Assembly (NCBI GenBank): GCA_031431335.1 | Contig: JANPDG010000143.1 | Coordinates: forward strand, 608-64,607 | Source of the DNA: Polaromonas sp. | GTDB lineage: Bacteria > Pseudomonadota > Gammaproteobacteria > Burkholderiales > Burkholderiaceae_C | Direction of reading: 5' to 3' | DNA: 64,000 nt | In this document: one piece after another, positions 9,135 through 61,427 of the stretch | How the letters are laid out: the number at the start of each line of letters is the position of its first letter | Position numbering within the stretch: position 1 is the first letter of the stretch | Notes under the pieces: generated by a model | Database searches by the model: none | What the model saw: the letters and a program-made list of their open reading frames with translations, nothing else | Told to the model about the DNA's origin: nothing | Position numbers and translations under genes: made by a program

Positions 9135-9200
9135 TTAGGTAACTTTTTAAGCACTTTTCCGACGTGGATATTAAATAGTTCGCTATATATTTAATAGCGA
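9135..9200 (+). repeat. AT-rich ~65-bp interspersed repeat, copy A
   Basis: TTTAGGTAACTTTTTAAGCACTTTTCCGACGTGGATATTAAATAGTTCGCTATATATTTAATAGCG. Lies between the glyA stop and the nrdR start. Confidence 0.9.
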
Positions 9201-9208
9201 CCTACGGC

Positions 9209-10453
9209 TTAGCCATAGACCGGGAAGCGGCTGGTCAGCGCCACCACTTTGGCGCGCACGGCCTCAATATTGGCTGCGTCGCGCGGGTTGTCTAGTACGT
9301 CGGCTATCAGGTGGGCTGTGGCGCGGGCTTCTTCTTCTTTAAAGCCGCGGGTGGTCATGGCGGGGGTGCCTATGCGGATGCCGCTGGTGACCATCGGCTT
9401 TTCTGGGTCTTTGGGGATGGCGTTTTTGTTGATGGTCATGTAAGCGTCGCCCAAAATAGTCTCAGCGTCCTTGCCTGTAATGCCCTTCGAGCGCAGGTCA
9501 ACCAGCATCAGGTGGCTCTCGGTGCGGCCGCTGACAATGCGCAGGCCGCGCTGCACCAGCGTTTCGGCTACGACCACAGCGTTTCTCATGATTTGCTGTT
9601 GGTACACCTTAAAGCTGGGCTCCAGTGCTTCTTTGAATGCTATCGCTTTGGCAGCAATGACATGCATCAGCGGGCCGCCTTGCAGGCCAGGGAATATGGC
9701 GCTGTTGATGGCTTTTTCGTGCTCGGCTTTCATCAATATGATGCCTCCGCGCGGGCCGCGCAGGCTTTTGTGGGTGGTGCTGGTGACCACGTCGGCAAAC
9801 GGCACGGGGCTAGGGTACACGCCGCCGGCAATCAGGCCAGAGTAGTGCGCCATGTCGACCATAAATATCGCGCCAACCGCCTTGGCCACCTTGGCAAAGC
9901 GCTCAAAGTCGATGCGCAGAGCATAGGCTGACGCGCCAGCGATGATGAGCTTGGGCTTGTGCTCATGCGCCAACGCTTCCATTTTGTCGTAGTCGATCTC
10001 CTCGGCTTCGTTCAGGCCGTAGCTCACCACGTTAAACCATTTGCCGCTCATGTTCAGCGGCATGCCGTGGGTCAAGTGACCGCCTTCGGCCAGGCTCATG
10101 CCCATGATGGTGTCGCCGGGCTTTAAAAATGCCAAAAACACCGCTTGGTTGGCAGACGCGCCGCAGTGCGGCTGCACGTTGGCGGCTTCTGCGCCATAAA
10201 GCTGTTTGAGGCGGTTAATGGCCAGCGTTTCGGCCACGTCTACGTTCACGCAGCCGCCGTAGTAGCGCTTGCCTGGGTAGCCTTCGGCGTATTTGTTGGT
10301 CAGCTGGGTGCCTTGGGCGGCCATGACGGCGGGGGAGGCGTAGTTCTCAGAGGCAATCAGCTCAATATGGTGCTCTTGGCGGGCGTTCTCGGCCACGATA
10401 GAGGCGTACAGCTCAGGGTCGGCTTGTTCGATAAGGATGTTACGGTTGAACAT
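9209..10453 (-). CDS. glyA: Serine hydroxymethyltransferase
   Basis: 414 aa. [14 protein letters not shown] and [12 protein letters not shown] (PLP lysine) motifs. Confidence 0.97.
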
Positions 10454-10494
10454 GGTGTGGCAGTCCTAGGTTGGTAAGGAGTGTCCTCTAAGAG

Positions 10495-10600
10495 TAGAGG
10501 CTGCCCAGGCGAACGGCTAAAACGCGAATCATGCGCCCCAAGGCGCACAGTGCGGCACGCTCCCTAGTGGTGGCCCACGTCGGCGCTGGTGCTTTTGTGA
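10495..10600 (-). promoter_or_regulatory. Candidate ZTP (pfl-motif) riboswitch in the glyA leader (tentative)
   Basis: Minus strand reads GUGGGCCACCAC-UA-GGGAGC ... UGCGCC-UUGG-GGCGCA ... GUUCGCCUGGGCAG, then a CCUCUA/UAGAGG hairpin, then the glyA ATG. This resembles the ZTP P2-GGGGAGC and CCGCCUGGGCA blocks. The GACUGGCG pseudoknot partner is not evident. Confidence 0.35.
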
Positions 10601-10653
10601 AAAAAAGCCAGCGCCTATCGCCAGTTGCGTACAGGCCTAAGTGTACCTTAAGC

Positions 10654-11487
10654 TTATGAGTTTGCCAGCGCAGCGATGGTGTCTTCGATGTCGGTTTTAG
10701 GCTTCACAGGCGCTATCACGGGGATGGTCTGCGGCGTAAAAGGTGTGATCGTAGGCACAGGCTTGCCGCCTGCCACTTCGCGCAGCCGGGCGTGCTCGGC
10801 CATTACTTTGGCGGTATAGCCGCCCTCAGTGGCGTCGCTGGTTGCGCCCACATATTGACGCAGACCGCCTTCGATCGAGCCAGCGCGGGCAATACAGTCT
10901 TGCAGCACTTTAACGCCCACGCGCAGGTTAGTGACCGGGTCAAAAGCTGCAAATTTGCCGCCAAAGCCTTCGTATTTATCGCTGTGTATATTAGTCATCA
11001 CCTGCATCAGCCCTTGCGCACCTACGGGGCTCTGGGCAAACGGGTTAAAGCTCGACTCGATGGCCATGATGGCCAAAATGAGGGTTGGCTCGATTTTGGT
11101 TTTAGCACCCACCTCGTAAGCCTCGGCCACTAGGGCAGAGATGGGCTCAGGAGCGACACTGTATTTTTTGCTCAGCCAGTAGGCCACTGCGGCTTGCTGT
11201 TTGGGCAGGTCTTTGGGGTTGGCTGCAGTGGCGCGGTCAATGGCTTCGGGCTCGGCCACGAGTGCCGAGGCATCGGCCACAACCACTGGCTGGCGAGCCT
11301 GTAGCCAGCCCATCAAGGCTGCCTCGCTCTGCAAGCGAAGCTCAGGTTTGGCCACCATCGTCAAAGCCAAGAACGCCAATACCAAGCCCACCATGGCCAA
11401 GCCATTGTGCGCAATCTCAAAAAATCCTTGTGCCACATCGCCTGCGAAAGTTCGCACGCCCTGGCCAAAACGCTTAATCACTGTCAT
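10654..11487 (-). CDS. Lytic transglycosylase (SLT) domain protein
   Basis: AIMAIESSFNPFAQSPVGAQGLMQVM catalytic SLT motif and an N-terminal TM segment. ATG at 11487 (MTVIKRFGQGV) has a GAAAGG RBS. The track ORF extends to 11634. Confidence 0.85.
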   Translation of the reverse strand: MTVIKRFGQGVRTFAGDVAQGFFEIAHNGLAMVGLVLAFLALTMVAKPELRLQSEAALMGWLQARQPVVVADASALVAEPEAIDRATAANPKDLPKQQAAVAYWLSKKYSVAPEPISALVAEAYEVGAKTKIEPTLILAIMAIESSFNPFAQSPVGAQGLMQVMTNIHSDKYEGFGGKFAAFDPVTNLRVGVKVLQDCIARAGSIEGGLRQYVGATSDATEGGYTAKVMAEHARLREVAGGKPVPTITPFTPQTIPVIAPVKPKTDIEDTIAALANS

Positions 11488-11911
11488 ATCACGCCTTTCT
11501 ACGCGGGGGCAAACTTCACATGACTGCAGCTTGTTAGCTGTGCAGCCAAATGATGTGCCCCTCGTTTGGATTGGAAACACTGGTATCGCGGACTGCACAT
11601 ATATAGTATGTGTGCAAGGCAGTCTCATCGACACCCTACCGAACTTGGTAGCAGAACGGGCCGTTGGCTCTAAGGGGAGCCAAGGGTTAGCCCGTGGTTT
11701 TTGATTACAGGCAAATTGTAGGGGCCTTGCTCATACACGGTCAAGCATTTGGTATCTATTTGATATATCAAATTAGGCATTAAAACCCGTTGGACGTGGT
11801 GTTTTGCACGGTTTTGAGCGTTTAAAGCTCTAAAACGGCTGACTTAGAGACTAATGCTTAAACCGGGTGACTGCGGTTTGGGCGGGTTGTTTTGCCGGGT
11901 TGTGTGACATT

Positions 11912-11978
11912 TAGTATGAAAATAATAGCAAACTATTGAATATCTACGTCGGAAAAGTGCTCATTTTTCTTCCAAAAG
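11912..11978 (-). repeat. AT-rich ~65-bp interspersed repeat, copy B
   Basis: Minus strand: TTTTGGAAGAAAAATGAGCACTTTTCCGACGTAGATATTCAATAGTTTGCTATTATTTTCATACTA. Confidence 0.9.
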
Positions 11979-12099
11979 CGTGATTGATGAGATGAAACGG
12001 GCTGTTGAGCTGACTAAGTGGTTTCCGGTGGGATTCATTAATCAGGCTTTTGTGGCCTTGGGGTGAGTTTCGTTTGGCTTGGCTTGATTGTGTGGCTTT

Positions 12100-12173
12100 G
12101 GTGAGATGGCGTATGCAAATCGCCCTCACACTGGGGTACCAGAGATCGGTCAATTTGCATACGCCATCTCACC
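12100..12173. repeat. Perfect 21-bp inverted repeat (hairpin, 32-nt loop)
   Basis: GGTGAGATGGCGTATGCAAAT (12100-12120) is exactly complementary to ATTTGCATACGCCATCTCACC (12153-12173). Confidence 0.95.
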
Positions 12174-12256
12174 TGCGACCACCTAGGCGCGCTGCCCGTA
12201 GCTTCGTCAAAGACTACGTGTTCAATACCGGCAGCGCTCTACATTAATCAGATCAA

Positions 12257-12324
12257 GTGTGTGGGTGTCCCTCTCGCCGGGTGTAAGGGTACTCCCGTGC
12301 CAGGCGAGAGGGACACCCACACAC
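12257..12324. repeat. Perfect 22-bp inverted repeat (hairpin, 24-nt loop)
   Basis: GTGTGTGGGTGTCCCTCTCGCC (12257-12278) is exactly complementary to GGCGAGAGGGACACCCACACAC (12303-12324). Confidence 0.95.
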
Positions 12325-12493
12325 GCAGAGACAAAGCCAGCGAATACAAGGAAAATCAGCCACTCAAGCAAATCAAAGTCTTCAGGTAAATGGCAGATAA
12401 CTGACGGAAAATCCCGCCAAACTGGCCTGCAAGTCATTTTGGTTACTTCTTCGCAGTATCATTAGCAAATTAGCATCACCAGGCACCCAATTC

Positions 12494-13756
12494 ATGGCCG
12501 ACCGTAAAGGCTCTCCGAGCGAAAAAACACTGCATTGCTCCTTTTGCGGCAAAAGCCAGCACGAGGTCAAAAAACTGATCGCTGGTCCGTCAGTGTTTAT
12601 CTGTGACGAATGCATCGACCTGTGCAACGACATCATCCGCGATGAAGTGCTGCCAGAGTCAGAGCGCGAAGCGCGCGGCGACCTGCCCACGCCGCTGGAG
12701 ATTAAAAACAACCTCGACAGCTACGTCATTGGCCAAGACCCGGCCAAACGCGCGCTGGCCGTGGCCGTGTACAACCACTACAAGCGCCTGCGCTACAAAG
12801 ACAAGTCCAAAACAGGCGAGGTCGAGCTGACCAAAAGCAATATTTTGCTTATCGGCCCCACTGGCTCGGGCAAGACCCTGCTGGCCCAAACCATGGCCCG
12901 CATGCTCAATGTGCCGTTTGTCATGGCAGACGCCACCACGCTCACTGAAGCAGGCTACGTGGGCGAAGACGTTGAAAACATCATCTCCAAGCTGCTGCAA
13001 ACCTGCAACTACGACGTCGAAAAAGCCCAGCAAGGCATTGTGTATATTGACGAAATCGACAAAATCTCGCGCAAGTCTGACAACCCGTCCATCACCCGCG
13101 ATGTATCGGGCGAGGGCGTGCAACAGGCGTTGCTCAAGATCATCGAAGGCACCATGGCCAGCGTGCCGCCCCAAGGCGGGCGCAAGCACCCCAACCAAGA
13201 CTTTTTGCAGATCGACACGACCAATATTTTGTTTATCTGCGGCGGCGCATTTGCGGGGCTAGAAAAGGTCATCGAAGCGCGCACCGAAGCCTCGGGCATC
13301 GGGTTTGGCGCAACCGTCAAGAGCAAAAAACAGCGCTCTTTAAGCCAGAGCTTTTTAGAGATCGAGCCAGAAGACTTGATCAAATATGGCCTGATTCCTG
13401 AGCTGATTGGCCGCATGCCCGTAGTGGCGGCGCTGTCTGAGCTGTCTGAGGATGCAATGGTACAGATTTTGACCGAGCCTAAAAACGCGCTGGTTAAGCA
13501 ATACGCCAAGCTGCTGGCTATGGAAGGCGCTGAGCTGGAAGTGCGCCCCAGCGCGCTCAAAGCCATTGCGCGCAAGGCGCTGGTGCGCAAGACTGGTGCC
13601 CGCGGCCTGCGTTCGATCCTAGAAAACGCGCTGATCGACACCATGTTTGACCTGCCCAATGCGGGCAATGTTGAAAAAGTGGTGCTGGATGAGTCCACCA
13701 TTGACGAAAACAAACCGCCGCTCTTGGTGTACCGCGAAACAGCCAAAAAGGCGTGA
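12494..13756 (+). CDS. clpX: ATP-dependent Clp protease ATP-binding subunit ClpX
   Basis: Zinc-binding [30 protein letters not shown], Walker A GPTGSGKT, 420 aa. Confidence 0.98.
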
Positions 13757-13816
13757 AATTGACCCGCGTGAACATGCCTGGCCCGAACACCTGATCACGG
13801 CTGAAACATCTGGGGG

Positions 13817-13845
13817 CTTGAAATCTTCGAACTTTGCCCTGATAT
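13817..13845 (+). promoter_or_regulatory. Probable sigma-32 (RpoH) heat-shock promoter of lon
   Basis: CTTGAAA-N13-CCCTGATAT lies about 35 nt upstream of the lon ATG. Resembles the CTTGAAA-N13/14-CCCCATnT consensus. Confidence 0.5.
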
Positions 13846-13880
13846 TTCGCTCTACAACCCATAAAAGCTGAAAGACAACC

Positions 13881-16322: not shown

Positions 16323-16350
16323 AAAGTTCTGCTACAATCGTAGCTTCGAT

Positions 16351-16426
16351 GCGGGAATAGCTCAGTTGGTAGAGCGCAACCTTGCCAAGGTTGAGGTCGA
16401 GAGTTCGAGACTCTTTTCCCGCTCCA
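16351..16426 (+). tRNA. tRNA-Gly (anticodon GCC)
   Basis: GCGGGAA acceptor pairs with TTCCCGC. Anticodon loop TTGCCAA, GTTCGAGAC T-loop, CCA end. 76 nt. Confidence 0.95.
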
Positions 16427-16439
16427 CATCGCTAAAAAA

Positions 16440-16464
16440 GGGAAGCAACAGCTTCCCTTTTTTT
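16440..16464 (+). terminator. Rho-independent terminator after tRNA-Gly
   Basis: GGGAAGC-AACA-GCTTCCC followed by TTTTTTT. Confidence 0.8.
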
Positions 16465-16541
16465 CTCTGGTTTTTATGTCAAGCAACTTTGGCAAGTTGA
16501 ACCAGCAGGCTTTTACGAGTTTGCTGGAGGTTAAGTTAAGT

Positions 16542-16615
16542 GGCGCGGTAGCAAAGCGGTTATGCCCCGGATTGCAAATCCGGTTAGCCCAGTTCGACTC
16601 TGGGCCGCGCCTCCA
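16542..16615 (+). tRNA. tRNA-Cys (anticodon GCA)
   Basis: GGCGCGG/CCGCGCC acceptor, anticodon loop TTGCAAA, GTTCGACTC T-loop, CCA end. 74 nt. Confidence 0.95.
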
Positions 16616-16665
16616 GTTTGAGTATGCTTCGCAAGCCACCTTGCGCGGTACGAGTAGTCCTAGTA

Positions 16666-16758
16666 GCCTGAGTGGTGGAATTGGTAGACACAGCGGACTT
16701 AAAATCCGCCGCTTCGTTCATAGCGGGCGTACCGGTTCGATTCCGGTCTCAGGCACCA
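16666..16758 (+). tRNA. tRNA-Leu (anticodon UAA), long variable arm
   Basis: GCCTGAG/CTCAGGC acceptor, anticodon stem GCGGA/TCCGC with loop CTTAAAA, variable arm CGCT-TCGTTCAT-AGCG, GGTTCGATTCC T-arm, ACCA end. 93 nt by my count. Confidence 0.85.
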
Positions 16759-21277: not shown

Positions 21278-21343
21278 TTTTAGGTGAAAATATTGGCATT
21301 TTCCGACGTGGATATTGAATAGTTAGCTATTAAATTAATAGTA
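21278..21343 (+). repeat. AT-rich ~65-bp interspersed repeat, copy C
   Basis: TTTAGGTGAAAATATTGGCATTTTCCGACGTGGATATTGAATAGTTAGCTATTAAATTAATAGTAA. Lies between the pobA stop and the CoA-transferase start. Confidence 0.9.
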
Positions 21344-31275: not shown

Positions 31276-31341
31276 ATACTATAATTTTAATAGCTAACTA
31301 TCTAATATCCCCGTCGGAAAATGCCAAAAAAGTCACCTAAA
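31276..31341 (-). repeat. AT-rich ~65-bp interspersed repeat, copy D
   Basis: Minus strand: TTTAGGTGACTTTTTTGGCATTTTCCGACGGGGATATTAGATAGTTAGCTATTAAAATTATAGTAT, directly followed by the beta-subunit ATG. Confidence 0.9.
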
Positions 31342-36974: not shown

Positions 36975-37040
36975 AACTCCTAAATAAATAGCAAACTATT
37001 GAATATCCACGTCGAAAAACTGCCTAAAAAGTTACCTAAA
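36975..37040 (-). repeat. AT-rich ~65-bp interspersed repeat, copy E
   Basis: Minus strand: TTTAGGTAACTTTTTAGGCAGTTTTTCGACGTGGATATTCAATAGTTTGCTATTTATTTAGGAGTT. Confidence 0.9.
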
Positions 37041-37059: not shown

Positions 37060-38514
37060 TCAGCGCACAGGCTGCAGCGCCTGCGCCATGCCTAGCACCG
37101 TGGTGCCCCAGTTGCCTGGTACGTCCATGATGAACGTGGCGCTTGCACCTTGTTGGCCGGGGGCGCTGCTGGTAAACCGCACATAGCTGCGTTGGCCCAC
37201 GGGAATGTTGGCCAGCAGCGCGGTGGCGTTGGCGGCCAAGGGCACCGATTGCATGGCTTGGGTGAACGCGGCGTCGCTGGCTACTTGCACAGTCAGCTGC
37301 TGCGGCTTGTCCGGGCTTTGGCTGTAGACCTTTAGGAGCAAGCCCTCGGGCGTGTAGCTGGCGGCTGCGCCAATAGCGATCTCGCTGGGCCATACCAAGT
37401 TGCTTTTGATCTCGACCAGTTTGACCGCGTCAAAGCCTTCGATACCTGCGGGGTCGATGCCGCGCACGCGGGCGTAGTAGCTGCCGTTGGACAGCGCGCT
37501 CACGTTGATGGCGGGGCTGGCGGATTTGAAGTCGCCGCGAATCTGGGCAAACTGGGCGTCGGTGGCAAACTGCGCGCGGTAGCCTGCTGCACCGGGCAGT
37601 GTGCCCACGGTCCAAGCGGCGTTGGCCACAGCAGACGCACTGGCTGCGCCGGTGCGCACGACCTGCGCAGGCAGCTGCGCCAGCGCCAAGGCGGGCAGCA
37701 AAGGCACCACTTTGACTTCACGGTCAGCAGGCTTAAAGGCCGCGCCAAATCCGCCGCCTACTTCAGCGCCTACTTTTTGCGCAGAATTGTCGCTGCGCAC
37801 TTTGCCTTCGATGACTTCGGTGCGGGCTGTGCCGCTGGCCGGGTCTTCATACGCCACGCGAAACTGGGTGCCGCGCACGCCAACCACCGAGGTGGGGGTG
37901 GTGACTTCCAGCGGGGTAATGCGGTTGGCTTTCTTCTCGGCCAAGGTGTCCAGCACGCCTTCGACCAAGCGAATCGCGCCCGAGAACCACGTGGTCGATG
38001 CGCTGCTGGCCGGGTCGCGCAGGGCGTAGCCGTGTTGGCGGGTGACTTCAGCCAATGTCTTGGGCATGAGCTGCATGCGCGAGCCGTCGGCCAGCTGCAC
38101 CACGGCAGAGCTGTTAGGCCCTGTTTGCAGGCGCGCGCCTTCGGGCACGGCTGCGCCCACTTGGGCTGCTTGGCCGCCGATTTTGACGTCGCCTTCAACG
38201 CTAATGACTTTGCCACTCAGGGCGATACGCGGCTGCGAGCTCAGGTTAATCAGGCTTTTGGGCACATCAATGATCTGGCCTGGATAAATGAGGTTGGCGT
38301 TCTTCAGGCCGTTGAGCTTGGCAACTTGGGGCCACTGCGATGGCTTTTGCAGCAAAGTGCGGGTGAGGCCCTGCAGGGTGTCTTTGGACTGCACGGTGTA
38401 GCGCACAAACGGCTCGTTCATGGCGGCCCAAGCGGTGGGTTGCAAGCAGCAGGCTGATACTAAAAGCATAGCAAACTTTGTAATACCAACGTCGGAAAAC
38501 TTATTATTTTTCAT
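37060..38514 (-). CDS. LysM and FecR domain-containing periplasmic protein
   Basis: Signal peptide, then LysM (YTVQSKDTLQGLTRTLL...NLIYPGQIIDVP), then a FecR-like beta-rich region. ATG at 38514 (MKNNKF...) preferred over 38556. Confidence 0.8.
   Translation of the reverse strand: MKNNKFSDVGITKFAMLLVSACCLQPTAWAAMNEPFVRYTVQSKDTLQGLTRTLLQKPSQWPQVAKLNGLKNANLIYPGQIIDVPKSLINLSSQPRIALSGKVISVEGDVKIGGQAAQVGAAVPEGARLQTGPNSSAVVQLADGSRMQLMPKTLAEVTRQHGYALRDPASSASTTWFSGAIRLVEGVLDTLAEKKANRITPLEVTTPTSVVGVRGTQFRVAYEDPASGTARTEVIEGKVRSDNSAQKVGAEVGGGFGAAFKPADREVKVVPLLPALALAQLPAQVVRTGAASASAVANAAWTVGTLPGAAGYRAQFATDAQFAQIRGDFKSASPAINVSALSNGSYYARVRGIDPAGIEGFDAVKLVEIKSNLVWPSEIAIGAAASYTPEGLLLKVYSQSPDKPQQLTVQVASDAAFTQAMQSVPLAANATALLANIPVGQRSYVRFTSSAPGQQGASATFIMDVPGNWGTTVLGMAQALQPVR
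37062..37096 (+). repeat. Direct repeat DR2 (authentic 3' end of the LysM/FecR gene)
   Basis: AGCGCACAGGCTGCAGCGCCTGCGCCATGCCTAG. Encodes ...LGMAQALQPVR-stop on the minus strand. Confidence 0.9.
38461..38514 (-). repeat. Degenerate copy F of the AT-rich repeat, translated as the N-terminus of the LysM/FecR protein
   Basis: Minus strand: ATGAAAAATAATAAGTTTTCCGACGTTGGTATTACAAAGTTTGCTATGCTTTTA = MKNNKFSDVGITKFAMLL. Confidence 0.75.
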
Positions 38515-38565
38515 CTTATTCAATTCTTCACAATACAGGTAAAACCGCTTTGGCAATGATGCAAA

Positions 38566-41274: not shown

Positions 41275-41340
41275 TTTACCTGTTTTTTAGTCACTTTTCC
41301 GACGTGGAATATAGATAGTTAGCTATCATAATAATAGTTT
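41275..41340 (+). repeat. AT-rich ~65-bp interspersed repeat, copy G
   Basis: TTTACCTGTTTTTTAGTCACTTTTCCGACGTGGAATATAGATAGTTAGCTATCATAATAATAGTTT, directly followed by the ATG of the ZIP transporter. Confidence 0.9.
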
Positions 41341-44493: not shown

Positions 44494-44560
44494 TTTTGGA
44501 ATAAAATATAGCATTTTTCCGACGTGGGTATTCAATAGTTTGCTATAAAATTAATAGTGA
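44494..44560 (+). repeat. AT-rich ~65-bp interspersed repeat, copy H
   Basis: TTTTGGAATAAAATATAGCATTTTTCCGACGTGGGTATTCAATAGTTTGCTATAAAATTAATAGTGA. Lies between convergent genes. Confidence 0.9.
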
Positions 44561-44602: not shown

Positions 44603-45484
44603 TCAACCCCGCGCCACTGGCAAGTCTGGTCGGTGGCTCCACTCACTCCAGCTGCCTGCAAACAGTGCGCTGGCTGGGTAGCCGGCTATGAGCATGGCCA
44701 GTACGTTGGGCACGGCGCTCACACCGCTGCCGCAGTGGTGAATTACCTGGGCACTGTCGCGCCCGGCCAGCAGAGCGTCAAACTCGGCGCGCAGCACAGC
44801 GGGGCTTTTGAACAGGCCGTCTGTGCCGATATTGAGCGCAAAAGGGCGATTCAGCGCCCCCGGAATATGCCCCGCCACCGGGTCAAGCGGCTCTACCTCG
44901 CCGCGAAACCGCGCACCGGCGCGGGCGTCGATGATGGTGTGGCTACCGGTGCGCACTGCATTTGCTACATCATCAATAGCAAACTTCTTAATATCCACGT
45001 CGGAAATATCGTATTTTGGCTTGCTAAAGTCGGCAACCAATGGGGCCGCTCCACTGGCCACTGCGCTGCCCGCAGCTGTCCAAGCCTGTAGCCCGCCGTC
45101 TAGCACCGCTACCGCGCTGTGGCCGCACCAGCGCAGCATCCACCAAGCCCGGCCGCAATAGTTCACGCCGTTGCGGTCGTACACCACCACCTGATCGCCC
45201 GGTGCGACGCCTACTGCGCCTAGCCAAGCGGCCAGCTTATTGCGGTCAGGCAGAGGATGGCGGCCACCGCTGGCCTTGTCGGCGGCACTGGTTTTGTCGC
45301 TCAGATCGGTGTCTAAGTGGACATAACGCGCACCGGCAATATGGCTTTGCTCAAACGCCTGCGGCCCTGCCAAAGGGTCCATCAGGTCAAAACTGCAGTC
45401 CCACAAGTGCAGTTTGGCCCCCTCGCTTTGCAGGGCTTGGAGTTGGGCGACTGAAATAAGGGTTGAAAACATCGTGGTTTGCAT
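44603..45484 (-). CDS. sseA: 3-mercaptopyruvate/thiosulfate sulfurtransferase (tandem rhodanese)
   Basis: Two rhodanese domains. Active-site loop HCGSGVSA is the mercaptopyruvate-sulfurtransferase type (CGSGV[TS]A). Confidence 0.85.
   Translation of the reverse strand: MQTTMFSTLISVAQLQALQSEGAKLHLWDCSFDLMDPLAGPQAFEQSHIAGARYVHLDTDLSDKTSAADKASGGRHPLPDRNKLAAWLGAVGVAPGDQVVVYDRNGVNYCGRAWWMLRWCGHSAVAVLDGGLQAWTAAGSAVASGAAPLVADFSKPKYDISDVDIKKFAIDDVANAVRTGSHTIIDARAGARFRGEVEPLDPVAGHIPGALNRPFALNIGTDGLFKSPAVLRAEFDALLAGRDSAQVIHHCGSGVSAVPNVLAMLIAGYPASALFAGSWSEWSHRPDLPVARG
44971..45010 (-). repeat. Copy H2 of the AT-rich repeat core, embedded in-frame in the sulfurtransferase inter-domain linker
   Basis: Minus strand: ATTTCCGACGTGGATATTAAGAAGTTTGCTATTGATGAT = ISDVDIKKFAIDD. 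About 33 of 36 nt match the repeat consensus. Confidence 0.8.
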
Positions 45485-47294: not shown

Positions 47295-47309
47295 TGCCTA
47301 AAAATTCAC

Positions 47310-47891
47310 CTAAATAATATCAAAGTGGTGAAATCCAAAGTTTCCCGATGCGGCGTCTGCAAAGTACCGCTCTAGCGTATCGCGCACCGTGCGAAAGGCA
47401 ATCTCGTCCCACGGGATCTCGGCTTGGGTAAACAAGCGCGCTTCCATGGTTTCAAAGCCGATGTCCAGCGCTTCGCTGAGCAGCTTGGCGCGGTAGAAAA
47501 AGTGCACCTGACCTACGCGCGGCACGTTGATCAAGGTGAACAGGTCTTGCATTTCAATCTGCGCACCCGCTTCTTCATCGGTCTCGCGCGCTGCGCCTTG
47601 GGCCGCAGTCTCGCCAAGCTCCATAAAGCCTGCAGGCAAAGTCCACAGACCTTTGCGCGGTTCGATGTTGCGTTTGCACAGCAGCACGCGGTGCACGCCC
47701 TGCGCATCGATCATGATAGGCACGGTGCCCACCACGTTAAGCGGGTTTTCGTAGTGCACGGTGCCGCATGCGGTGCACACAGCGCGCAGCTTGGTGTCGC
47801 CATCGTCCGGCTGGCGGTAGGCGACTGCTGCGCCACAGGCTTTGCAGTGCTTGATCGGTGGGCGTGGGTACATGCACATGAGTGTACGCAA
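47310..47891 (-). CDS. NUDIX hydrolase with N-terminal zinc ribbon
   Basis: CKACGAA...CTACG zinc ribbon and Nudix box GFMELGETAAQGAARETDEEAG. Confidence 0.9.
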   Translation of the reverse strand: MRTLMCMYPRPPIKHCKACGAAVAYRQPDDGDTKLRAVCTACGTVHYENPLNVVGTVPIMIDAQGVHRVLLCKRNIEPRKGLWTLPAGFMELGETAAQGAARETDEEAGAQIEMQDLFTLINVPRVGQVHFFYRAKLLSEALDIGFETMEARLFTQAEIPWDEIAFRTVRDTLERYFADAASGNFGFHHFDII

Positions 47892-51018: not shown

Positions 51019-51060
51019 GCGCTTCCTTGTTAGATTGATTGATGTGGTGATGAATTAAAC

Positions 51061-51125
51061 ACTACTAAAATAATAGCTAACTATTTAATATCCACGTCGG
51101 AAAAGTGCCTAAAAAGTTATCTAAC
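51061..51125 (-). repeat. AT-rich ~65-bp interspersed repeat, copy I
   Basis: Minus strand: GTTAGATAACTTTTTAGGCACTTTTCCGACGTGGATATTAAATAGTTAGCTATTATTTTAGTAGTG. The left arm overlaps the stop codon of the FAH gene. Confidence 0.9.
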
Positions 51126-53867: not shown

Positions 53868-53917
53868 GAAATTCCTTAAAGGCAGGGTGAAATATGAAAA
53901 CCTAGAGCGTACCTTAT

Positions 53918-55165: not shown

Positions 55166-55256
55166 GATGCAGATAATAAGTATACATATCATTCGCATGC
55201 ATAGTACTTACCCTAGAGTGTCAATCCATGAACATCACCGTACACTTCCAACTGAT

Positions 55257-55688
55257 ATGCCAAGTTTTGATTTCACCCATGCGCCAGGCCATTTAATTCG
55301 GCGTGCGCACCAAGTCTCGATAGCGCTGTTCACGCAGGAGTTGGCTTCGTTTGACGTCACGGCAGTGCAATTTGCTATTTTGCAAACCTTGCTGGATTCC
55401 CCAGGCGCCGACCAAATTACTGTGGCGCAACACGTGGCTTTTGACGCAGCAACCTCAGGCTCAGTGATTGGCCGATTAGAGGCGCGGGGTTGGCTGCGCC
55501 GTGAGGCTGATACCTTAGACAAACGGCGCAAACTGTTGTGGCTGACGGCCGAAGGCAGAAAAGCTGCTTTGCAAATGAAAAAACCGGTCGAAAAAGTGCA
55601 ATCCAAATTATTGGCGGCGCTAAGTACCGCAGAGCAAAAGCAGTTGATAGACTTACTACAAAAAATCAGCACAGTGCAAAGCGTGTAA
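55257..55688 (+). CDS. MarR family transcriptional regulator
   Basis: PGHLIRRAHQVSIALFTQEL...VTAVQFAILQTL...DKRRKLLWLTAEG winged-helix pattern. Divergent from the gentisate cluster. The track ORF from 55023 is over-extended. Confidence 0.88.
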   Translation: MPSFDFTHAPGHLIRRAHQVSIALFTQELASFDVTAVQFAILQTLLDSPGADQITVAQHVAFDAATSGSVIGRLEARGWLRREADTLDKRRKLLWLTAEGRKAALQMKKPVEKVQSKLLAALSTAEQKQLIDLLQKISTVQSV

Positions 55689-55894
55689 CTTGTGCGACGC
55701 TTCCTTGCAGAACCCTGAAGCCTCACTGCTTGTCAGTCTATCTCAAGGGTAAACCCCGTGGGTCTGTAGCAGATGCGGTTCCTAAAATTCACCTTGACTA
55801 AAACAAGTCCTCATCTCAGGCCAATCCGCTTGAAGATGGGTTGTTCAACCGGGCTCGAGATACACATCAACCAGCCCAATCGGAGATAGACAAG

Positions 55895-56977
55895 ATGGAT
55901 CGTCGTTCCCTAATTAAAAACGCTGGCATTGCTGGCGTGCTGGCAGCTGGCGCTGCTCCTGCAATAGTTCAAGCCCAAGCCGCAGTGCGCTGGCGTTTGT
56001 CGTCGAGCTTTCCTAAAGCGCTCGACACCATCTTTGGCGCTGCTGAAGTGTTCTCCAAAAAAGTCAAGGAAATGTCTGGCGGCAAGTTTGAGATCTCTGT
56101 CCACGCGGGCGGCGAGATCACTCCACCGTTTGGCGTGGTAGATGCTGTTCAGCAAGGCTCAATCGAGTGCGCGCACACAGCCCCTTACTACTTCTTCGGC
56201 AAGAACGAGGCGTTTGCTCTGGGTTGTGCCATTCCGTTTGGCCTGAACAGCCGCCAGATGACTGCTTGGATGTACGAAGGCAACGGCATGAAGCTGATGC
56301 GCGAGTTCTACGCTAAGTACAACATGGTGAACTTCCCGATGGGTAACACCGGTGCGCAGATGGGCGGCTGGTACCGCAAAGAGATCAAGTCCGCTAAAGA
56401 CATTAAAGGCCTGAAGATGCGCATCGGCGGCTTCGCAGGCAAAGTGTTTGAGCGTATGGGCGGCGTGCCACAAAACATACCTGGCGGCGAGATTTACTCG
56501 GCCCTCGAAAAAGGCACCATCGACGCAGCAGAGTGGGTAGGGCCGTACGACGACCAGAAGCTGGGCTTCAACAAGGTCGCTCCGTTCTACTACTACCCAG
56601 GTTGGTGGGAGGGTGGCCCTCAGTTGGATCTGTTTGTTAACGACAAGGCTTACAACGCATTGTCAGCAGAGAACAAAGCCATTGTGGAAGCCGCAGCCGC
56701 TGTAGCCCACACCGAGATGCAAGCGCGCTACGATGCCAAGAACCCAACCGCACTCAAGCAGTTGGTAGGTGCTGGCACCAAGCTGCGTCCGTTCTCTAAC
56801 GACGTGATGGCTCTGGCATTCAAAGAAGCCATGGCTCTGTACGAAGAACTCAATGCGAAGAACGAAGACTGGAAGAAGATTTACGCTGACTACAGCAAGT
56901 TCCGCGCAGATTCCAACCTGTGGTTCCGCTTCACCGAAGCCAAGTTCGACAGCTTCATGCAGTCACAAAAGCTGTAA
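55895..56977 (+). CDS. TRAP transporter substrate-binding protein with Tat-type signal
   Basis: GGAGATAG RBS and MDRRSLIKNAGIAGVLAAGAAPAIVQA. About 360 aa. Confidence 0.9.
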   Translation: MDRRSLIKNAGIAGVLAAGAAPAIVQAQAAVRWRLSSSFPKALDTIFGAAEVFSKKVKEMSGGKFEISVHAGGEITPPFGVVDAVQQGSIECAHTAPYYFFGKNEAFALGCAIPFGLNSRQMTAWMYEGNGMKLMREFYAKYNMVNFPMGNTGAQMGGWYRKEIKSAKDIKGLKMRIGGFAGKVFERMGGVPQNIPGGEIYSALEKGTIDAAEWVGPYDDQKLGFNKVAPFYYYPGWWEGGPQLDLFVNDKAYNALSAENKAIVEAAAAVAHTEMQARYDAKNPTALKQLVGAGTKLRPFSNDVMALAFKEAMALYEELNAKNEDWKKIYADYSKFRADSNLWFRFTEAKFDSFMQSQKL

Positions 56978-57020
56978 CGCAGTGCTGCTTGAAAAAGCAG
57001 CTTCGCATCAGTTTTCAAAA

Positions 57021-57041
57021 GCCGCCCTCGGGCGGCTTTTT
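57021..57041. terminator. Rho-independent terminator between convergent genes
   Basis: AAAAGCCGCC-CTCG-GGCGGCTTTTT. Confidence 0.85.
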
Positions 57042-57052
57042 GCGTTTGACAG

Positions 57053-58306
57053 TCACATAGCGCAGGTTCTGAATCCCCAGAACCCACTGTCCATCTGCGG
57101 TGCAGCGAACCCGCGAAACGTGGGCTGCTTCATTCGGGCGCGGGTGGCAAACGAGCCGCCGCGCAAGACCTTGCACTGGCCAAAGCTCTTGGTGCTGTAG
57201 GTGTGCCACGGCCCGGCTTCAAAGCCGGGGTAGGGGCTAAAGGTGTTGGCTGTCCATTCCCATACATCGCCCCAGCGAAAGCCTTGGCCCTGTGCGGTGC
57301 GCGCTGCGATTTCCCATTCCACCTCGGTGGCCAAGCGGCGGCCTGCCCAGTGGGCGTAGGCTTGGGCTTCAAACCATGTCATGTGCATGGCGCTGCTGTG
57401 GCCTGCTGCGCGCAGCGGCGTGCCAAAGCGCGTGAGCATCACCGCGCCACTGGCCACGCCTATCTGGTCGACAAAGCGCGGGCCTCGGCGGCCTTCTTGA
57501 TTGGCGGTGTCTTGCAGCCACAGCCAACCCTGGGGCGACCAGTGCGCGGCATCGTCATAGCCCCCATCGTCAATAAACTCGACATACTGCGCCCAGCTGA
57601 TGGGCTGCGCATCGATTTCAAACTCTGGCACAGCCACTTCGTGGCGCGCACGCTCGTTGTCCCATGCAAAGCCGCCGCCCGCTGCGCCTAGCTGCCAACG
57701 CGTGGCGGGCAGCAGCAAGGGCGCGCGCGGTGTCCATGTAGGGCTTGTGGGCATGGTGATTTTCAGACCCAAAGCTTGCGCGAGGACGGCAAACTGCTCA
57801 CCAATCTGGTCTTCGCGAGACAGGGCCAGCCGGTAAAAATACAGCGCAGCATCGCTGTCATCGGTTTTCTCTAGCAGCTCTAGTGTGGTCTCTAGGGTTT
57901 CTAGCAGATAGGCTTTGATGGTGCCGAGATCGGGGTAGCTCTGCAGCCAGCGCTCAGACCGTGTGGCCAGAGCAGGGTTCCAAAGCATATCGGCGCGGGG
58001 CTCGATGGAGGCCAGGCGCAGACTCTGTGCGGGGCACAGCGACCCCAGGCTGCGCTGCGCATTGCGGCCAATCCACCATTCTTGAAACCAACCCACATAG
58101 CCTAATAGCCAGAGCGGCGGCAGAGCCTGTGCAACGTGGGGCACGCTCAGGTCGTTAGCAAAACGCTGCTGAGGGATTGCGCTTTCAAACTGTCCCATGA
58201 GGTGCAGGGTATGGTTGCGCGCATCCATCAAAGCCAATGAGAGCACTTCACGCCCCGCTTGGCGCGTGGTGATGGTGTCGATAGACGGCGGGGTGCGAAT
58301 CAGCAT
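57053..58306 (-). CDS. SUMF1/EgtB/PvdO-family non-heme iron enzyme (DinB-like N-terminus plus FGE-sulfatase-like C-terminus)
   Basis: 417 aa. C-terminal WEWTANTF...RGGSFATR is typical of the FGE/EgtB fold. N-terminal His-containing DinB-like region (ARNHTLHLM). Confidence 0.8.
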   Translation of the reverse strand: MLIRTPPSIDTITTRQAGREVLSLALMDARNHTLHLMGQFESAIPQQRFANDLSVPHVAQALPPLWLLGYVGWFQEWWIGRNAQRSLGSLCPAQSLRLASIEPRADMLWNPALATRSERWLQSYPDLGTIKAYLLETLETTLELLEKTDDSDAALYFYRLALSREDQIGEQFAVLAQALGLKITMPTSPTWTPRAPLLLPATRWQLGAAGGGFAWDNERARHEVAVPEFEIDAQPISWAQYVEFIDDGGYDDAAHWSPQGWLWLQDTANQEGRRGPRFVDQIGVASGAVMLTRFGTPLRAAGHSSAMHMTWFEAQAYAHWAGRRLATEVEWEIAARTAQGQGFRWGDVWEWTANTFSPYPGFEAGPWHTYSTKSFGQCKVLRGGSFATRARMKQPTFRGFAAPQMDSGFWGFRTCAM

Positions 58307-58450
58307 CAGCCATTATCGCGCGTGCACCGGGAAAGTGCTCGTTGCACGGCTTTGGAGTTTAGGGTTAACCCGGCAGTGATCTGTCAGGCTTTTGCCAGTG
58401 CAAGCGACGAGTCTTTGCGACAATACACTTATAAATTATTGGAGCACACC

Positions 58451-58990
58451 ATGTCTGTACTTTTAAAGTTTGCCCTTGCGGTGGACTGGATCAACGAACG
58501 GTTTAGTAAGCTGGCAGCTTGGGCGGTGTTTATCTCCGCGATGATTTGTGCAGGCAACGCCTTCATTCGCTACGGCTTTGACATGAGCTCCAACGGTTGG
58601 ATCGAGATCCAGTGGTATTTGTTTGCAGTCACCGTGATGCTGGGCGCGCCCTACGTGCTGAAAATGAACGAGCATGTGCGTGTTGACTTGGTCTACGGCA
58701 AACTCAAAGGCAATGGCCCCGTATATGTAGACCTGTTTGGCCTGATCTTCTTTTTGATGCCCGTGGTTATTGTGCTGCTTTACATGTGCGTGCCGTATTT
58801 TTACCAAGCCTTTTTGTCCAAAGAGATGAGCCAAAACGCTGGCGGCCTGATTCGCTGGCCTGCCATCTTGACGCTGCCAGTAGGCTTTGCATTGCTGTTG
58901 GCGCAGGGCGTATCAGAGATCATCAAGCGCGTGGCCTATTTGACCGGCAGCTACCAGATGGACACCCATTACGAGAAGCCGCTGCAGTAA
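58451..58990 (+). CDS. TRAP transporter small permease
   Basis: ATG at 58451 after GGAG, 4 TM, precedes the large permease. The track ORF from 58259 is over-extended. Confidence 0.88.
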   Translation: MSVLLKFALAVDWINERFSKLAAWAVFISAMICAGNAFIRYGFDMSSNGWIEIQWYLFAVTVMLGAPYVLKMNEHVRVDLVYGKLKGNGPVYVDLFGLIFFLMPVVIVLLYMCVPYFYQAFLSKEMSQNAGGLIRWPAILTLPVGFALLLAQGVSEIIKRVAYLTGSYQMDTHYEKPLQ

Positions 58991-59047
58991 GCAGCTACCT
59001 ACCTTCACACACAACAATACAACCTAACTTTTGAATAGAGTACCAAA

Positions 59048-60643
59048 ATGGTGATGGAAAATTTTGCCCCGATCATGTTCGCGGGTCTTGTGGTGATCAT
59101 GCTGATAGGTTTTCCGGTGGCGTTTTCGCTTGCGGCACTGGGCTTGGGCTGCGGCTTCTTTGCTATTCAGATGGGCTGGTTTCCGGCTGCATATTTGAGT
59201 AACTTGCCCCTGGCCTTGTTTTCTATTTTGTCTAACGAGCTGCTGCTGGCGATTCCGTTTTTTACCTTCATGGGGACGATCTTAGAAAAATGCGGCTTGG
59301 CTGAAGACATGCTCGATTCAATGGGCCAGCTGTTTGGCCCTATGAAAGGCGGCTTAGGCTACTCGGTCATTATTGTGGGCTTTATCTTGGGTGCTATTAC
59401 CGGCACGGTTGCAGGCCAAGTGATCGCTATGGCGCTGATTTCGCTGCCTGTGATGATGCGCTACGGCTACAACATGCGCTACGCGACCGGCGTGTTGGCG
59501 GCTTCGGGCACCATCACCCAGCTTGTGCCTCCATCATTGGTGTTGGTGGTTCTGGCTGACCAGTTGGGCAGGCCCGTGGGCGACATGTACAAAGGCGCTT
59601 GGGGACCTTCGATTTTGCAAGTCCTGTTTTTTGCAGCCTACACATTCGCGCTGACCTTGGCCAAGCCAGACTACCTGCCGGGCGTGCCTAAAACAGAGCG
59701 AACGCTCAATGGTTGGGCGCTGTGGTCAAAATGCCTGCGCGGTATTATTCCATCGGCTATTTTGATCTTCACTGTGCTGGGTTCGATGGGTGGTTTGCCA
59801 TTCCAAAAGACAGCTATTGCCACGCCGACAGAAGCTGGCGCGATGGGCGTGGTGGGCGCACTCGTTTTAGCGGCTATGTACAAACGCCTGTCCAAGGCTT
59901 TGCTCTGGGACGCTATGGTCGGCACGATGAGACTGACCGCCATGGTGGTGTTTATCCTGATCGGCTCGCGCGTGTTCAGCCAAGTGTTCCAAGGGGTGGA
60001 TGGCGCTAAATGGGTAGAGCATTTACTCACCGGTTTGCCAGGCGGCCAAGTGGGCTTCTTGATTGTGGTGAACGTGTTTGTGTTCTTCTTAGCGTTCTTC
60101 TTGGACTTCTTTGAAATCGCCTTCATTATTGTGCCCATGCTCGCACCTGTAGCTGAGAAGCTGGGCATCAACCTGGTGTGGTTTGGCGTGCTGTTGTGCG
60201 TGAACTTGCAAACCAGCTTCATGCACCCGCCATTTGGTTTTGCGCTGTTCTATTTGAGAGGTATATCGGACACGCTGTTCAAAGAAAAGCGTATTCCTGA
60301 AGCAGTTAAATCTAACGATATTTACCTTGGCTCGATCCCGTGGATCATCATGCAGTTGATCTTGGTGGCTGTAGTTATTTTTGTACCAGAGACCGTTACG
60401 GTGTTCTTAGACAAAGAGATCGTGGTCGATGTAGATAAAGTCAAAATCGAGATACCTGCCGATGCAGAGGCTGCCGCTAAAGACCCAGCTTCTGCCCTGA
60501 TGCCTGCTGCATCTTCGCCAGCTACCACAGGCACTGCTGCTGAGAATGCTGCTGCAGATCTGGCTAACAGTGGAACTGCTGCTGACAAAGCAGCGGAAGA
60601 AGAGCAAAAGAAAATGGACGAACTCTTTAAAGAGAAAAAGTAA
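59048..60643 (+). CDS. TRAP transporter large permease with low-complexity C-terminal extension
   Basis: 531-aa DctM-type polytopic core plus an Ala/Glu/Lys-rich tail of about 90 aa. Confidence 0.9.
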   Translation: MVMENFAPIMFAGLVVIMLIGFPVAFSLAALGLGCGFFAIQMGWFPAAYLSNLPLALFSILSNELLLAIPFFTFMGTILEKCGLAEDMLDSMGQLFGPMKGGLGYSVIIVGFILGAITGTVAGQVIAMALISLPVMMRYGYNMRYATGVLAASGTITQLVPPSLVLVVLADQLGRPVGDMYKGAWGPSILQVLFFAAYTFALTLAKPDYLPGVPKTERTLNGWALWSKCLRGIIPSAILIFTVLGSMGGLPFQKTAIATPTEAGAMGVVGALVLAAMYKRLSKALLWDAMVGTMRLTAMVVFILIGSRVFSQVFQGVDGAKWVEHLLTGLPGGQVGFLIVVNVFVFFLAFFLDFFEIAFIIVPMLAPVAEKLGINLVWFGVLLCVNLQTSFMHPPFGFALFYLRGISDTLFKEKRIPEAVKSNDIYLGSIPWIIMQLILVAVVIFVPETVTVFLDKEIVVDVDKVKIEIPADAEAAAKDPASALMPAASSPATTGTAAENAAADLANSGTAADKAAEEEQKKMDELFKEKK

Positions 60644-60715
60644 AGTTTTAGCGCCTCCAATGGTGCGCTGCGAAAGTAAGCTGCGCGCTACACACAGGCC
60701 ATGTTTCATCCTCAC

Positions 60716-60763
60716 AGCCCCTGCAGTTTGCGTCTTAGGCGTAAGTTGTCAGGGGCTTTTTTA
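60716..60763 (+). terminator. Rho-independent terminator
   Basis: AGCCCCTG...CAGGGGCT followed by TTTTTT. Confidence 0.75.
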
Positions 60764-60798
60764 TCTTTTGAGTTGACCTGTTGTATGGGGTGTGCGCT

Positions 60799-61350
60799 AT
60801 GTTAGAGATTCGACCGATGGACCATCTGGGTCCTCCTCCATTCCCGTTTCGTCCGTCGTCCGACCCTTTGGTCAGCCCAGCTTTTTCCATCGTGTTCCGT
60901 GCACTGGCTTTGGTGATTGTGTTGGGCTGCACCTATGGCGTGTGGTCACTGTGGTTTGGTGGGCATTTGACATCGCCCGTTGCAGCCTCGGCACCCGCTG
61001 CGGCTACAGGTGCTGCGTCTGCCAACAGCATGTATGGCTCTGGCCTGATCTGGGCGCTGTCTGCGCTCGCGCTGCTGCTCTACACGCTGTGGTGCATTTT
61101 GACCAGCGTGACCACCTTGACCCACTCCACCATAGAGCAGACTTTTGTCTGGAACAAAAAGCTCGAGCTGCGCGAACTGGCCTACGTCAAGCTGATCCGC
61201 GTGCCTGGGCTGGACTGGTTGATTGCGCCGCGCTTGTACTGCCGTACTTTGTTAGGTAAATTTGCAGTTTTTTATACGGCTGACGCACACATGATTGGGG
61301 AATTTGAGCGCTTGCGTGATGAGTTGAGCGCGTTTCGTAAAGTACGTTAA
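60799..61350 (+). CDS. Hypothetical membrane protein
   Basis: Two or three hydrophobic segments. No recognisable motif. ATG at 60799 preferred over TTG at 60781. Confidence 0.55.
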   Translation: MLEIRPMDHLGPPPFPFRPSSDPLVSPAFSIVFRALALVIVLGCTYGVWSLWFGGHLTSPVAASAPAAATGAASANSMYGSGLIWALSALALLLYTLWCILTSVTTLTHSTIEQTFVWNKKLELRELAYVKLIRVPGLDWLIAPRLYCRTLLGKFAVFYTADAHMIGEFERLRDELSAFRKVR

Positions 61351-61362
61351 GTTGACTTGTTT

Positions 61363-61427
61363 GGTTGATTATTTTGGCATTTTTCCGACGTGGATATTAA
61401 ATAGTTAGCTATTAAAATAATAGTAAC
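61363..61427 (+). repeat. AT-rich ~65-bp interspersed repeat, copy J
   Basis: GGTTGATTATTTTGGCATTTTTCCGACGTGGATATTAAATAGTTAGCTATTAAAATAATAGTAAC. Confidence 0.9.

Follow-up and report, generated by a model that had tools for sequence, protein, structure and literature searches.

A clade-restricted family of ~65-bp AT-rich repeats in Polaromonas: a candidate protein-recognised DNA element with a constrained core and in-gene copies

The window analysed here, a 64-kb stretch of contig JANPDG010000143.1 from a Polaromonas sp. assembly, carries 11 copies of an AT-rich interspersed repeat of ~65 bp. Judged from comparison with related loci, these repeats are one subfamily, A, of a larger ~65-bp AT-rich interspersed DNA family that belongs to one Polaromonas-like clade. 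The element has an unusual mix of properties: it shows no terminal inverted repeat (TIR), no target-site duplication (TSD) and no stable hairpin, yet a core of ~30 bp is constrained, and the copies that lie inside genes alter the protein sequence but not its length. As an explanation we tentatively favour a mechanism like that of REPINs and their REP-associated tyrosine transposases (RAYTs), in which a putative lineage-specific trans-acting protein would copy and overwrite the family members. The first-pass annotation of the window, which had listed the 11 copies, recognised neither that they form one subfamily of a wider family, nor that the coding copies are equal-length replacements rather than insertions, nor that the subfamily of orthologous copies changes with the genome.

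The number and the positions of the copies given there hold up in two independent searches. Searching the whole window with the 18-nt core TTTTCCGACGTGGATATT, with up to 3 mismatches allowed, gave 11 matches (Table 1), compared with 0 expected from 100 dinucleotide shuffles, and an unbiased repeat search recovered the same 11 copies as two 64-73-nt families, with five copies on the plus strand and six on the minus strand. A hidden Markov model (HMM) built from these copies detected 0 further full copies in the window. A 12th, partial copy emerged from a left-arm pattern search at 0 mismatches; it is a solo left arm with a perfect match to the pattern. The copies are indeed strongly AT-rich in GC-rich surroundings (GC 0.27-0.38 vs 0.56 for the window), and the A consensus, a unit of ~65 bp, contains stop codons in every reading frame. 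The proposed density of about one copy per 6 kb extends to 146 kb of same-lineage DNA, where 25 copies correspond to ~1 copy/5.9 kb, a figure that is biased upwards because the loci were fetched via anchor genes that themselves adjoin copies.

An alignment of 22 distinct A copies revealed the anatomy of the element. The left arm is variable and occurs in two forms, TTTAGGTAACTTTTTAGGCAC or TTTTGGAAGAAAAATGAGCAC. It consists of two T-tract decamers (TTTAGGTAAC-TTTTTAGGCAC or TTTTGGAAGAAAAATGAGCAC), and the start of the core, TTTTCCGACG, makes a third decamer in phase, so that the T-tract decamers are spaced by 10-11 bp. The core is nearly invariant over ~31 bp (TTTTCCGACGTGGATATTnAnTAGTTnGCTAT) and is laid out in the alignment as TTTTCCGACGTGGATATT-nAn-TAGTT-n-GCTAT. 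The right arm is a 5-7-5 palindrome, in which GCTAT pairs with a downstream (A/G)TAG(C/T) over a 7-nt AT-rich spacer. This GCTAT-N7-ATAGY arrangement is the main palindrome of the element, rather than the weak ATAGTTAGCTAT half-palindrome that had been pointed out before; its variation is limited to the 3' half, and pair counts detected no covariation in the 5-bp palindrome above shuffled controls. The repeat search, the alignments and the folding agree with the earlier description of an element with neither TIRs nor a strong hairpin: the left end TTTAGGTAAC does not match the reverse-complemented right end ACTATTATTT, the repeat search and the alignments show no TIR, and the sole internal inverted repeat, of 13 nt, is present only in type I arms. 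The flanks of the 22 copies share no motif, with no fixed tetranucleotide and only a weak TT preference; a target of the IS200/IS605 type was rejected because of the missing tetranucleotide and the spread of the copies over both strands. One A copy (L033:8167-8225) has an extra decamer, TTTTCGGGCG, directly before the TTTTTTCGACG of the core, as if the ~10-nt T-tract unit that builds the left half of the element had been duplicated in tandem.

The wider family became visible when homologues of NrdR, the rhodanese and the LysM/FecR protein were used as handles for relatives, which provided ~400 kb of related loci (designated L below). Every relative with an NrdR identity of at least 92% has an orthologous element between glyA and nrdR. 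In relatives that lack A copies (NrdR 92-97% identical; L007, L010, L019-L028), a different ~65-nt sequence occupies the same place upstream of nrdR in the same orientation, and an HMM made from these nrdR-spacer variants found 3-6 further copies per 4-20-kb locus. The resulting subfamilies, A-E, have a common frame, TTTAG-N43-GCTAY-N7-RTAGY (48-nt spacing, palindrome), and differ in their ~30-nt cores, a C-type example being ...TAGCCCAATAGAACATAGCACAAGCAGCTAT...; the window contains A only, whereas L002 and L006 contain A-type plus D-like copies in one contig. In outgroups at 89% and 87% NrdR identity, including an Acidovorax, the glyA-nrdR spacer is 8-21 nt long and holds no element. Since these outgroup spacers are devoid of it, the family belongs to one clade alone, and its nrdR copy is an old insertion. 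Consistent with this, a scan of a genome collection with a 31-nt degenerate pattern returned at least four contigs, with only Polaromonas sp. metagenome-assembled genomes (MAGs) among the matches listed, and a metagenome scan matched one contig; among the matches listed and the loci compared, copies of the family are limited to Polaromonas MAGs and their near relatives. A plasmid origin was rejected, as a blastn search of PLSDB with the A, C and D consensuses gave no match, and so was a phage origin: the core 17-mer has 11 matches in IMG/VR, none with similarity past the 17-mer, and a rough estimate places this number in the chance range. The repeats had been called a type not recognised, and they still are, as neither Rfam at gathering and relaxed thresholds nor a literature search for the exact sequence strings of the element produced a match. 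Two features adjoining non-A copies were also seen. In L007 (9704-9868), a 15-nt tandem repeat, GGTAGCTTGGCTTGG, in ~8 copies makes up part of the glyA-nrdR spacer upstream of the B-type copy, and in L024 (1-2725) an MmeI-family type IIL restriction-modification gene adjoins two D-type copies.

Comparison of filled and empty orthologous sites indicates that copies come and go as whole units. Relative to the window, the clpX-SLT spacer of L008 is longer by a clean 62 nt (at 6337-6409) that correspond to one element exactly, and L008 also carries a 92-nt insertion, made up of an element and a further 27 nt, between the stop codons of TK and DUF6806, which overlap. The orthologous site at a NUDIX stop codon holds a full copy in L033 and the left arm alone in the window and in L035. 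Downstream of ribD, the ribD-ribE spacer carries a copy in C-type genomes but none in the A lineage. At the junctions of filled versus empty sites there is no TSD, no TIR and no conserved target. Whole-unit presence and absence between close relatives fits the MITE-like mobile spacer that was among the roles first suggested (MITE, miniature inverted-repeat transposable element).

At orthologous loci the core is clearly maintained: copies are ~93% identical, compared with ~62% at fourfold-degenerate sites. The orthologues of copy w10 in the window, L033 and L035 are identical at 40-41/44 positions of the core plus right arm and at 17/24 positions of the left arm, and fourfold-degenerate sites in the genes flanking w10 are 0.60-0.72 identical; if neutral identity is set at 0.63, finding 41/44 identities has a binomial probability of 4.5e-6. 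Likewise, w2 and its orthologue, L008:6990-7060, share 40/44 identities over the core plus right arm, and other orthologous pairs keep the ~30-nt core, with differences mostly in the N7 spacer. By these comparisons, the constraint on the ~30-bp core is as strong as that on non-synonymous codon positions. Orthologue-specific variants, for example in the N7 loop or at the TTnGC position, persist per locus, and since such locus-specific variants are retained, recent wholesale homogenisation among paralogues is unlikely. Among the roles that had been suggested for the repeats, a protein-binding site is a plausible one and the option that the evidence favours, because the core is so strongly constrained at orthologous loci.

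At the conserved sites (upstream of nrdR, in the rhodanese linker, in the LysM/FecR signal peptide and in DUF349), the element always belongs to the dominant subfamily of the genome; upstream of nrdR, for example, any of the five types A-E can be present, depending on the lineage. Two window copies had been reported to be translated as protein, and this was borne out: w6 lies in the signal peptide of the LysM/FecR protein and w9 in the linker of the rhodanese. The w9 segment matches the element model with an nhmmer E of 3e-16 over model positions 2-82. The length of the linker is unchanged in rhodanese homologues down to 43% identity, and as it is the same in outgroups, a simple insertion was rejected. 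In the A lineage the linker reads DFSKPKYDISDVDIKKFAIDDVA (short form DISDVDIKKFAIDDVA), also in L033 and L035, whose loci hold intergenic A copies. In the next clade it reads DFSKPNYPLAQQNIAQAAIDYVA (short form PLAQQNIAQAAIDYVA), which is almost the conceptual translation of C-type copies from intergenic sites, ...NRPLAQ*NIAQAAIKYVA. The w6 segment reads MKNNKFSDVGITKFAMLLV in A-lineage LysM/FecR homologues, and other homologues of the same length read MKKQRLAQVNTAQAAIIFIV, the translation of a C/D-type element (LAQVNTAQAAIIFIV). DUF349 also holds an in-frame copy, of the B type in L007 and C-like in L019-L023. Wherever a copy is coding, another codon stands in place of the only stop in that frame (TAG to AAG in the A type). 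Aligned in this way, the in-gene members are equal-length in-frame replacements, which track the dominant subfamily at the cost of protein sequence. This has a consequence for annotation: the public NCBI entry for the LysM/FecR gene at 37060-38514(-) (P0241, 453 aa) begins at a downstream ATG and skips the element-encoded signal peptide. Because homologues of 480-495 aa share the 31-residue upstream signal peptide, the true start is probably ATG 38514, and the missed start is a caution for gene callers.

The rhodanese linker also raises the question of where the family came from. The frame motifs match codons of the gene (TTTAG at F153-S154, GCTAT at A169-I170 and GTAGC at V173-A174) with an identical 48-nt spacing; the residues encoded by the frame motifs are invariant among closer homologues, and the subfamily-specific core falls on variable linker residues. 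Thus, the family could have been seeded from the rhodanese segment, or the coding copies could anchor the frame. Taken further, the repeats might be a passively amplified gene fragment from the sseA-like rhodanese linker (44956-45036), spread and homogenised through general recombination alone (RecA gene conversion or illegitimate events) and needing no protein of its own, in which case the frame motifs would simply be codons of conserved rhodanese residues. The whole element is colinear with codons D152-A176, the constant linker length in outgroups implies that the segment is no insertion, and the two nearest outgroup clusters share 5/19 residues with the element translation. However, when the C-type translation was compared with 15 outgroup linkers by permutation, the resemblance was not significant (3547/20000 permutations reached the observed score), and the rhodanese was therefore rejected as a proven source of the family. 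Furthermore, the GC3 of the element segment is 0.24-0.36 (0.36 for w9) vs 0.70 in the rest of the gene, and because its codons are so AT-rich, the segment looks element-derived rather than native. RecA conversion, moreover, cannot place a 65-nt unit at non-homologous new loci, and the retained locus-specific variants oppose pervasive conversion. We consider this origin quite unlikely.

We then weighed the roles that would act through RNA or transcription. A small-RNA family or a cis-acting RNA module (untranslated region, UTR; processing; stability) working in transcripts would agree with two observations: between co-directional genes, A-type copies mostly run in the direction of the genes, and every variant of the palindrome preserves G-U pairing on the forward strand. 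Nevertheless, RNAalifold predicted no consensus fold for the 22 A copies or for a set of 27 B-E copies, whichever strand was used (0-5 predicted pairs), and single copies fold no more stably than shuffled sequences (z -0.9 to +0.9). Rfam had nothing on the element, either at the gathering threshold over the window and five related loci or at relaxed thresholds over two copies (one of them w11, searched over 61300-61520), and reversed, convergent and intragenic antisense copies occur. With covariation also absent, a known RNA family or a structured RNA was rejected, and the small-RNA or UTR family suggested earlier is highly improbable. The portable promoter suggested alongside it fared no better as a sigma-70 module: a standard scan yielded fewer sites than in shuffles and none common to the copies, and the orientation across loci is mixed (11 copies co-oriented and 5 reversed vs the flanking genes, with nrdR orthologues counted once). 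Our own hexamer scan found a borderline TGGATA-N16/17-TAAAAT with 8-9/12 matches in several copies. A by-eye check against sigma-54, sigma-28, ECF, IHF, DnaA-box, dif and NrdR-box sites gave nothing convincing, only partial matches in some variants, and the resemblance of TTTAGGTGAC to the first 10 nt of the SP6 promoter, whose initiation region is absent, was taken as coincidence. Taken as a whole, the evidence points to an element that works as DNA, with its ~30-bp core plus palindrome recognised by a protein, and that is neither an RNA gene nor a generic promoter.

Such a protein could belong to the ordinary regulatory equipment of the host. The repeats would then be architectural or regulatory sites, with the core plus palindrome bound by a nucleoid-associated protein or a global regulator and kept by purifying selection; DNA bending at the phased T-tracts possibly helps, and copies may occasionally be promoter or UP-like modules. 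A core that is constrained at orthologous loci while arms and flanks drift is what this reading expects, and the locus-specific variants that are kept, the 10-11-bp spacing of the T-tracts, the position of most copies at <100 nt from a start codon and the borderline hexamers in several copies are consistent with it. What it explains poorly is the setting of the copies: the functions of the flanking genes are unrelated, the orientation is mixed, some copies lie between convergent genes or in coding sequences (CDSs), and the standard scan found no consistent sigma-70 promoter. In addition, near-identity over ~30 bp far exceeds known regulator sites, the outgroups are wholly without the element upstream of nrdR, and selection alone would hardly switch the core at hundreds of sites between close lineages. 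A host site is, in our estimate, unlikely.

A different reading takes the element as an uptake signal, and in its favour a pilin with the ComP_DUS domain is encoded in a type IV pilus cluster next to nrdR. If the element were a signal comparable to the DNA uptake sequence (DUS) or the uptake signal sequence (USS), a competence receptor would prefer the core, and transformation would replace decayed alleles by intact ones, creating lineage "dialects". The lineage-specific subfamilies at orthologous sites would be accounted for, as would the two orientations, the constraint per locus with its locus-specific variants, the coding copies in tolerant protein regions (one frame, protein length unchanged), the missing match among PLSDB plasmids and the phage matches of mere chance 17-mers. 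What weakens this reading is that the ComP-type pilin next to nrdR does not follow the subfamily: the pilins are only 31-72% identical within the A lineage, and the window and a C-type genome have pilins with 65% identity. Another receptor is conceivable. The element is also 3-6 times longer than known signals and ~6 times sparser, its appearance and loss as a whole unit are not a product of point-mutation drive, and the A and C cores differ at most positions, which is too much for stepwise drift in close relatives. An uptake signal is, in our estimate, decidedly improbable.

The explanation that we favour, although we would put it at somewhat less than an even chance, is the REPIN-RAYT-like one. 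A DNA-binding or recombination protein, with its gene elsewhere in the genome, would recognise the core plus palindrome; this putative protein would copy the unit into AT-rich spacers and would also overwrite existing members between the frame motifs TTTAG ... GCTAY-N7-RTAGY, as a result of which all copies in a genome, in-gene ones included, would carry the same core. In favour of this explanation are the restriction to one clade, the wider family with its common frame, the whole-unit gains and losses, the constraint on the core, the concerted change of subfamily and the missing RNA features. These are observed, as are the equal-length coding copies, whereas the protein and its copying and overwriting are inferred. 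Four points weigh against the explanation. First, genes for Y1/RAYT, IS110 or tyrosine recombinase proteins are absent among the genes of the window and the ~400 kb of related loci, although one gene per 4-5 Mb is easily missed in such a sample. Second, with no TIR, TSD or conserved flanking target, and with a 5-bp hairpin that does not covary, no known transposition chemistry is indicated. Third, the persistent locus-specific variants oppose frequent recent overwriting and fit purifying selection per locus at least as well. Fourth, the subfamilies have no more than 5-10 nt of frame in common, and no mechanism has been demonstrated by which one could overwrite another.

A bolder form of the overwriting idea is that the repeats constitute a genome-wide "address" for a sequence-overwriting system, which would rewrite TTTAG ... 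GCTAY-N7-RTAGY sites, coding DNA included, with a master core; the rewriter might be a protein specific to the lineage, or else a replicator that arose from the rhodanese linker segment. This is doubtful and, as we see it, unlikely, but were it true, a signal peptide and the linker of a housekeeping enzyme would be altered in step with hundreds of intergenic copies. The REPIN-RAYT-like explanation, if its dedicated protein exists, would amount to a new repeat-maintenance system and possibly a sequence-specific DNA-writing tool. Without a dedicated protein, the family still offers a clean example from nature of coding and non-coding DNA evolving in concert. In practical terms, the element can serve as a marker for a glacier and freshwater Polaromonas clade.

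The copies of the window are listed in Table 1. The orientation tally of the first-pass annotation (seven copies facing the downstream gene, two reversed, one between convergent genes and one inside a CDS) was reproduced with our own gene calls and Pfam. Most copies lie at ≤100 nt from a start codon, and the genes flanking them have unrelated functions according to Pfam.

Table 1. Copies of the A-type element in the 64-kb window and their surroundings.
Copy	Coordinates	Strand	Core match	Location and remarks
w1	9135..9200	+	9155+	glyA-nrdR spacer; reverse complement faces the nrdR ATG, 15 nt off
w2	11912..11978	-	11939-	divergent SLT/clpX spacer; type II left arm TTTTGGAAGAAAAATGAGCAC
w3	21278..21343	+	21299+	between FAD-monooxygenase stop and CoA-transferase start; reversed vs both
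w4	31276..31341	-	31304-	between the alpha and beta genes of a ring-hydroxylating dioxygenase; beta ATG directly at the 3' end
w5	36975..37040	-	37002-	between LysM/FecR gene stop and amidohydrolase start
w6	38445..38526	-	38482-	translated as signal peptide (MKNNKFSDVGITKFAMLLV...) of the LysM/FecR protein; element TAG -> AAG
w7	41275..41340	+	41295+	3' of a terminator-like hairpin; 3' end abuts the ZIP transporter ATG
w8	44494..44560	+	44515+	between convergent alpha/beta-hydrolase and rhodanese genes; orthologue L035:10911-10979
w9	44956..45036	-	44990-	full-length in-frame element homologue; inter-domain linker DFSKPKYDISDVDIKKFAIDDVA of two-domain rhodanese 44603-45484(-)
Solo left arm	47295..47314	-		TTTAGGTGAATTTTTAGGCA; overlaps NUDIX stop codon (orthologous site: full copy in L033, solo arm in L035)
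w10	51061..51125	-	51087-	FAA-hydrolase/dctQ spacer; left arm holds the upstream stop codon; orthologues in L033 and L035
w11	61363..61427	+	61381+	between two co-directional genes; next start codon 85 nt downstream

Several other features of the window were recorded. The ATG codons of the dioxygenase beta gene (31275) and the ZIP transporter gene (41341) lie 1-3 nt past the 3' end of an element and have no Shine-Dalgarno sequence, and nrdR is likewise without one, which suggests leaderless or Shine-Dalgarno-independent initiation, or start codons that need a check. Upstream of glyA there is a ZMP/ZTP (pfl) riboswitch at 10496-10638(-) (Rfam, 46 bits vs a gathering score of 39), and the same arrangement is found in L019, L020 and L024. 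The type IV minor-pilin cluster at 1-8650 (PilW/PilX/PilY1 and the ComP_DUS-domain pilin), with a GC content of 45-49%, is convergent with nrdR. Its gene order differs among strains with 99-100% identical NrdR, and its pilins are 31-72% identical; the cluster looks like a recombining, horizontally exchanged island. The clpX-SLT spacer contains two long GC-rich perfect or near-perfect hairpins, at 12098-12175 (35-nt arms, conserved in L008) and 12254-12327. Relaxed Rfam searches gave only spurious miRNA-precursor matches for both, and they may be a second REP-like repeat type or small-RNA or terminator structures. Directly 3' of lon is a cluster of tRNA-Gly(GCC), tRNA-Cys(GCA) and tRNA-Leu(TAA) at 16351-16758(+).

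The element is to be set beside the known small interspersed repeats, although the structures that define REP/REPIN elements and MITEs are missing from it. With MITEs (Correia/NEMIS, ERIC, RUP, Nezha), it shares a small, non-coding and multi-copy nature, whole-unit polymorphism among strains and a mostly intergenic location that is now and then read through by open reading frames (ORFs). Unlike MITEs, it has no TIR, no TSD and no recognisable parent insertion sequence, and its core is constrained at old orthologous copies, whereas MITE relics normally decay. A review (PMC10969869) cites Mattes et al. 2008 for MITEs in Polaromonas sp. JS666. The element may be identical with these; going by this mention alone, the likeness lies in the same genus-level host and in the small size and non-autonomous nature of the repeats. 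The A, C and D consensus sequences had no plasmid match in PLSDB, in which we assume the JS666 plasmids to be included.

Rickettsia palindromic elements (RPEs) resemble the coding copies in that they are translated in frame within structurally tolerant protein regions. RPEs, however, add 30-50 residues and are palindromic, whereas the coding copies of the element replace an equal length and, unlike RPEs, change subfamily along with the rest of the genome. The DUS of Neisseriaceae and the USS of Pasteurellaceae come close in other respects, namely lineage "dialects", both orientations, maintenance per locus, and coding copies that lie in tolerant regions in one frame with protein length unchanged; the strand symmetry of the element (5 on the plus and 6 on the minus strand) agrees with them as well. 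These signals are 10-32 bp long, occur at ~1 per kb and arise by point substitution, whereas the element is ~65 bp long (conserved block ~31 bp), occurs at ~1 per 6 kb and is gained as a unit.

REPs are GC-rich strong hairpins with a 5' GTAG, usually arranged as inverted doublets, in contrast to an element with ~29% GC (0.27-0.38 among the copies) and a 5-bp palindrome that folds no better than shuffled sequences and occurs singly. Its right end, (A/G)TAG(C/T), may be compared with the GTAG hallmark of REPs, and no Y1/RAYT gene is present in the window or the loci compared. The likeness to REP/BIME repeats and the REPIN-RAYT system is in the overall behaviour: all are short (<100 bp) and intergenic, with hundreds of copies (here implied by the density in the window). 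The element further has in common with them a lineage-specific type, vertical persistence, conservation at orthologous sites, the lack of TIR and TSD, and a presumed dependence on a single trans-acting protein.

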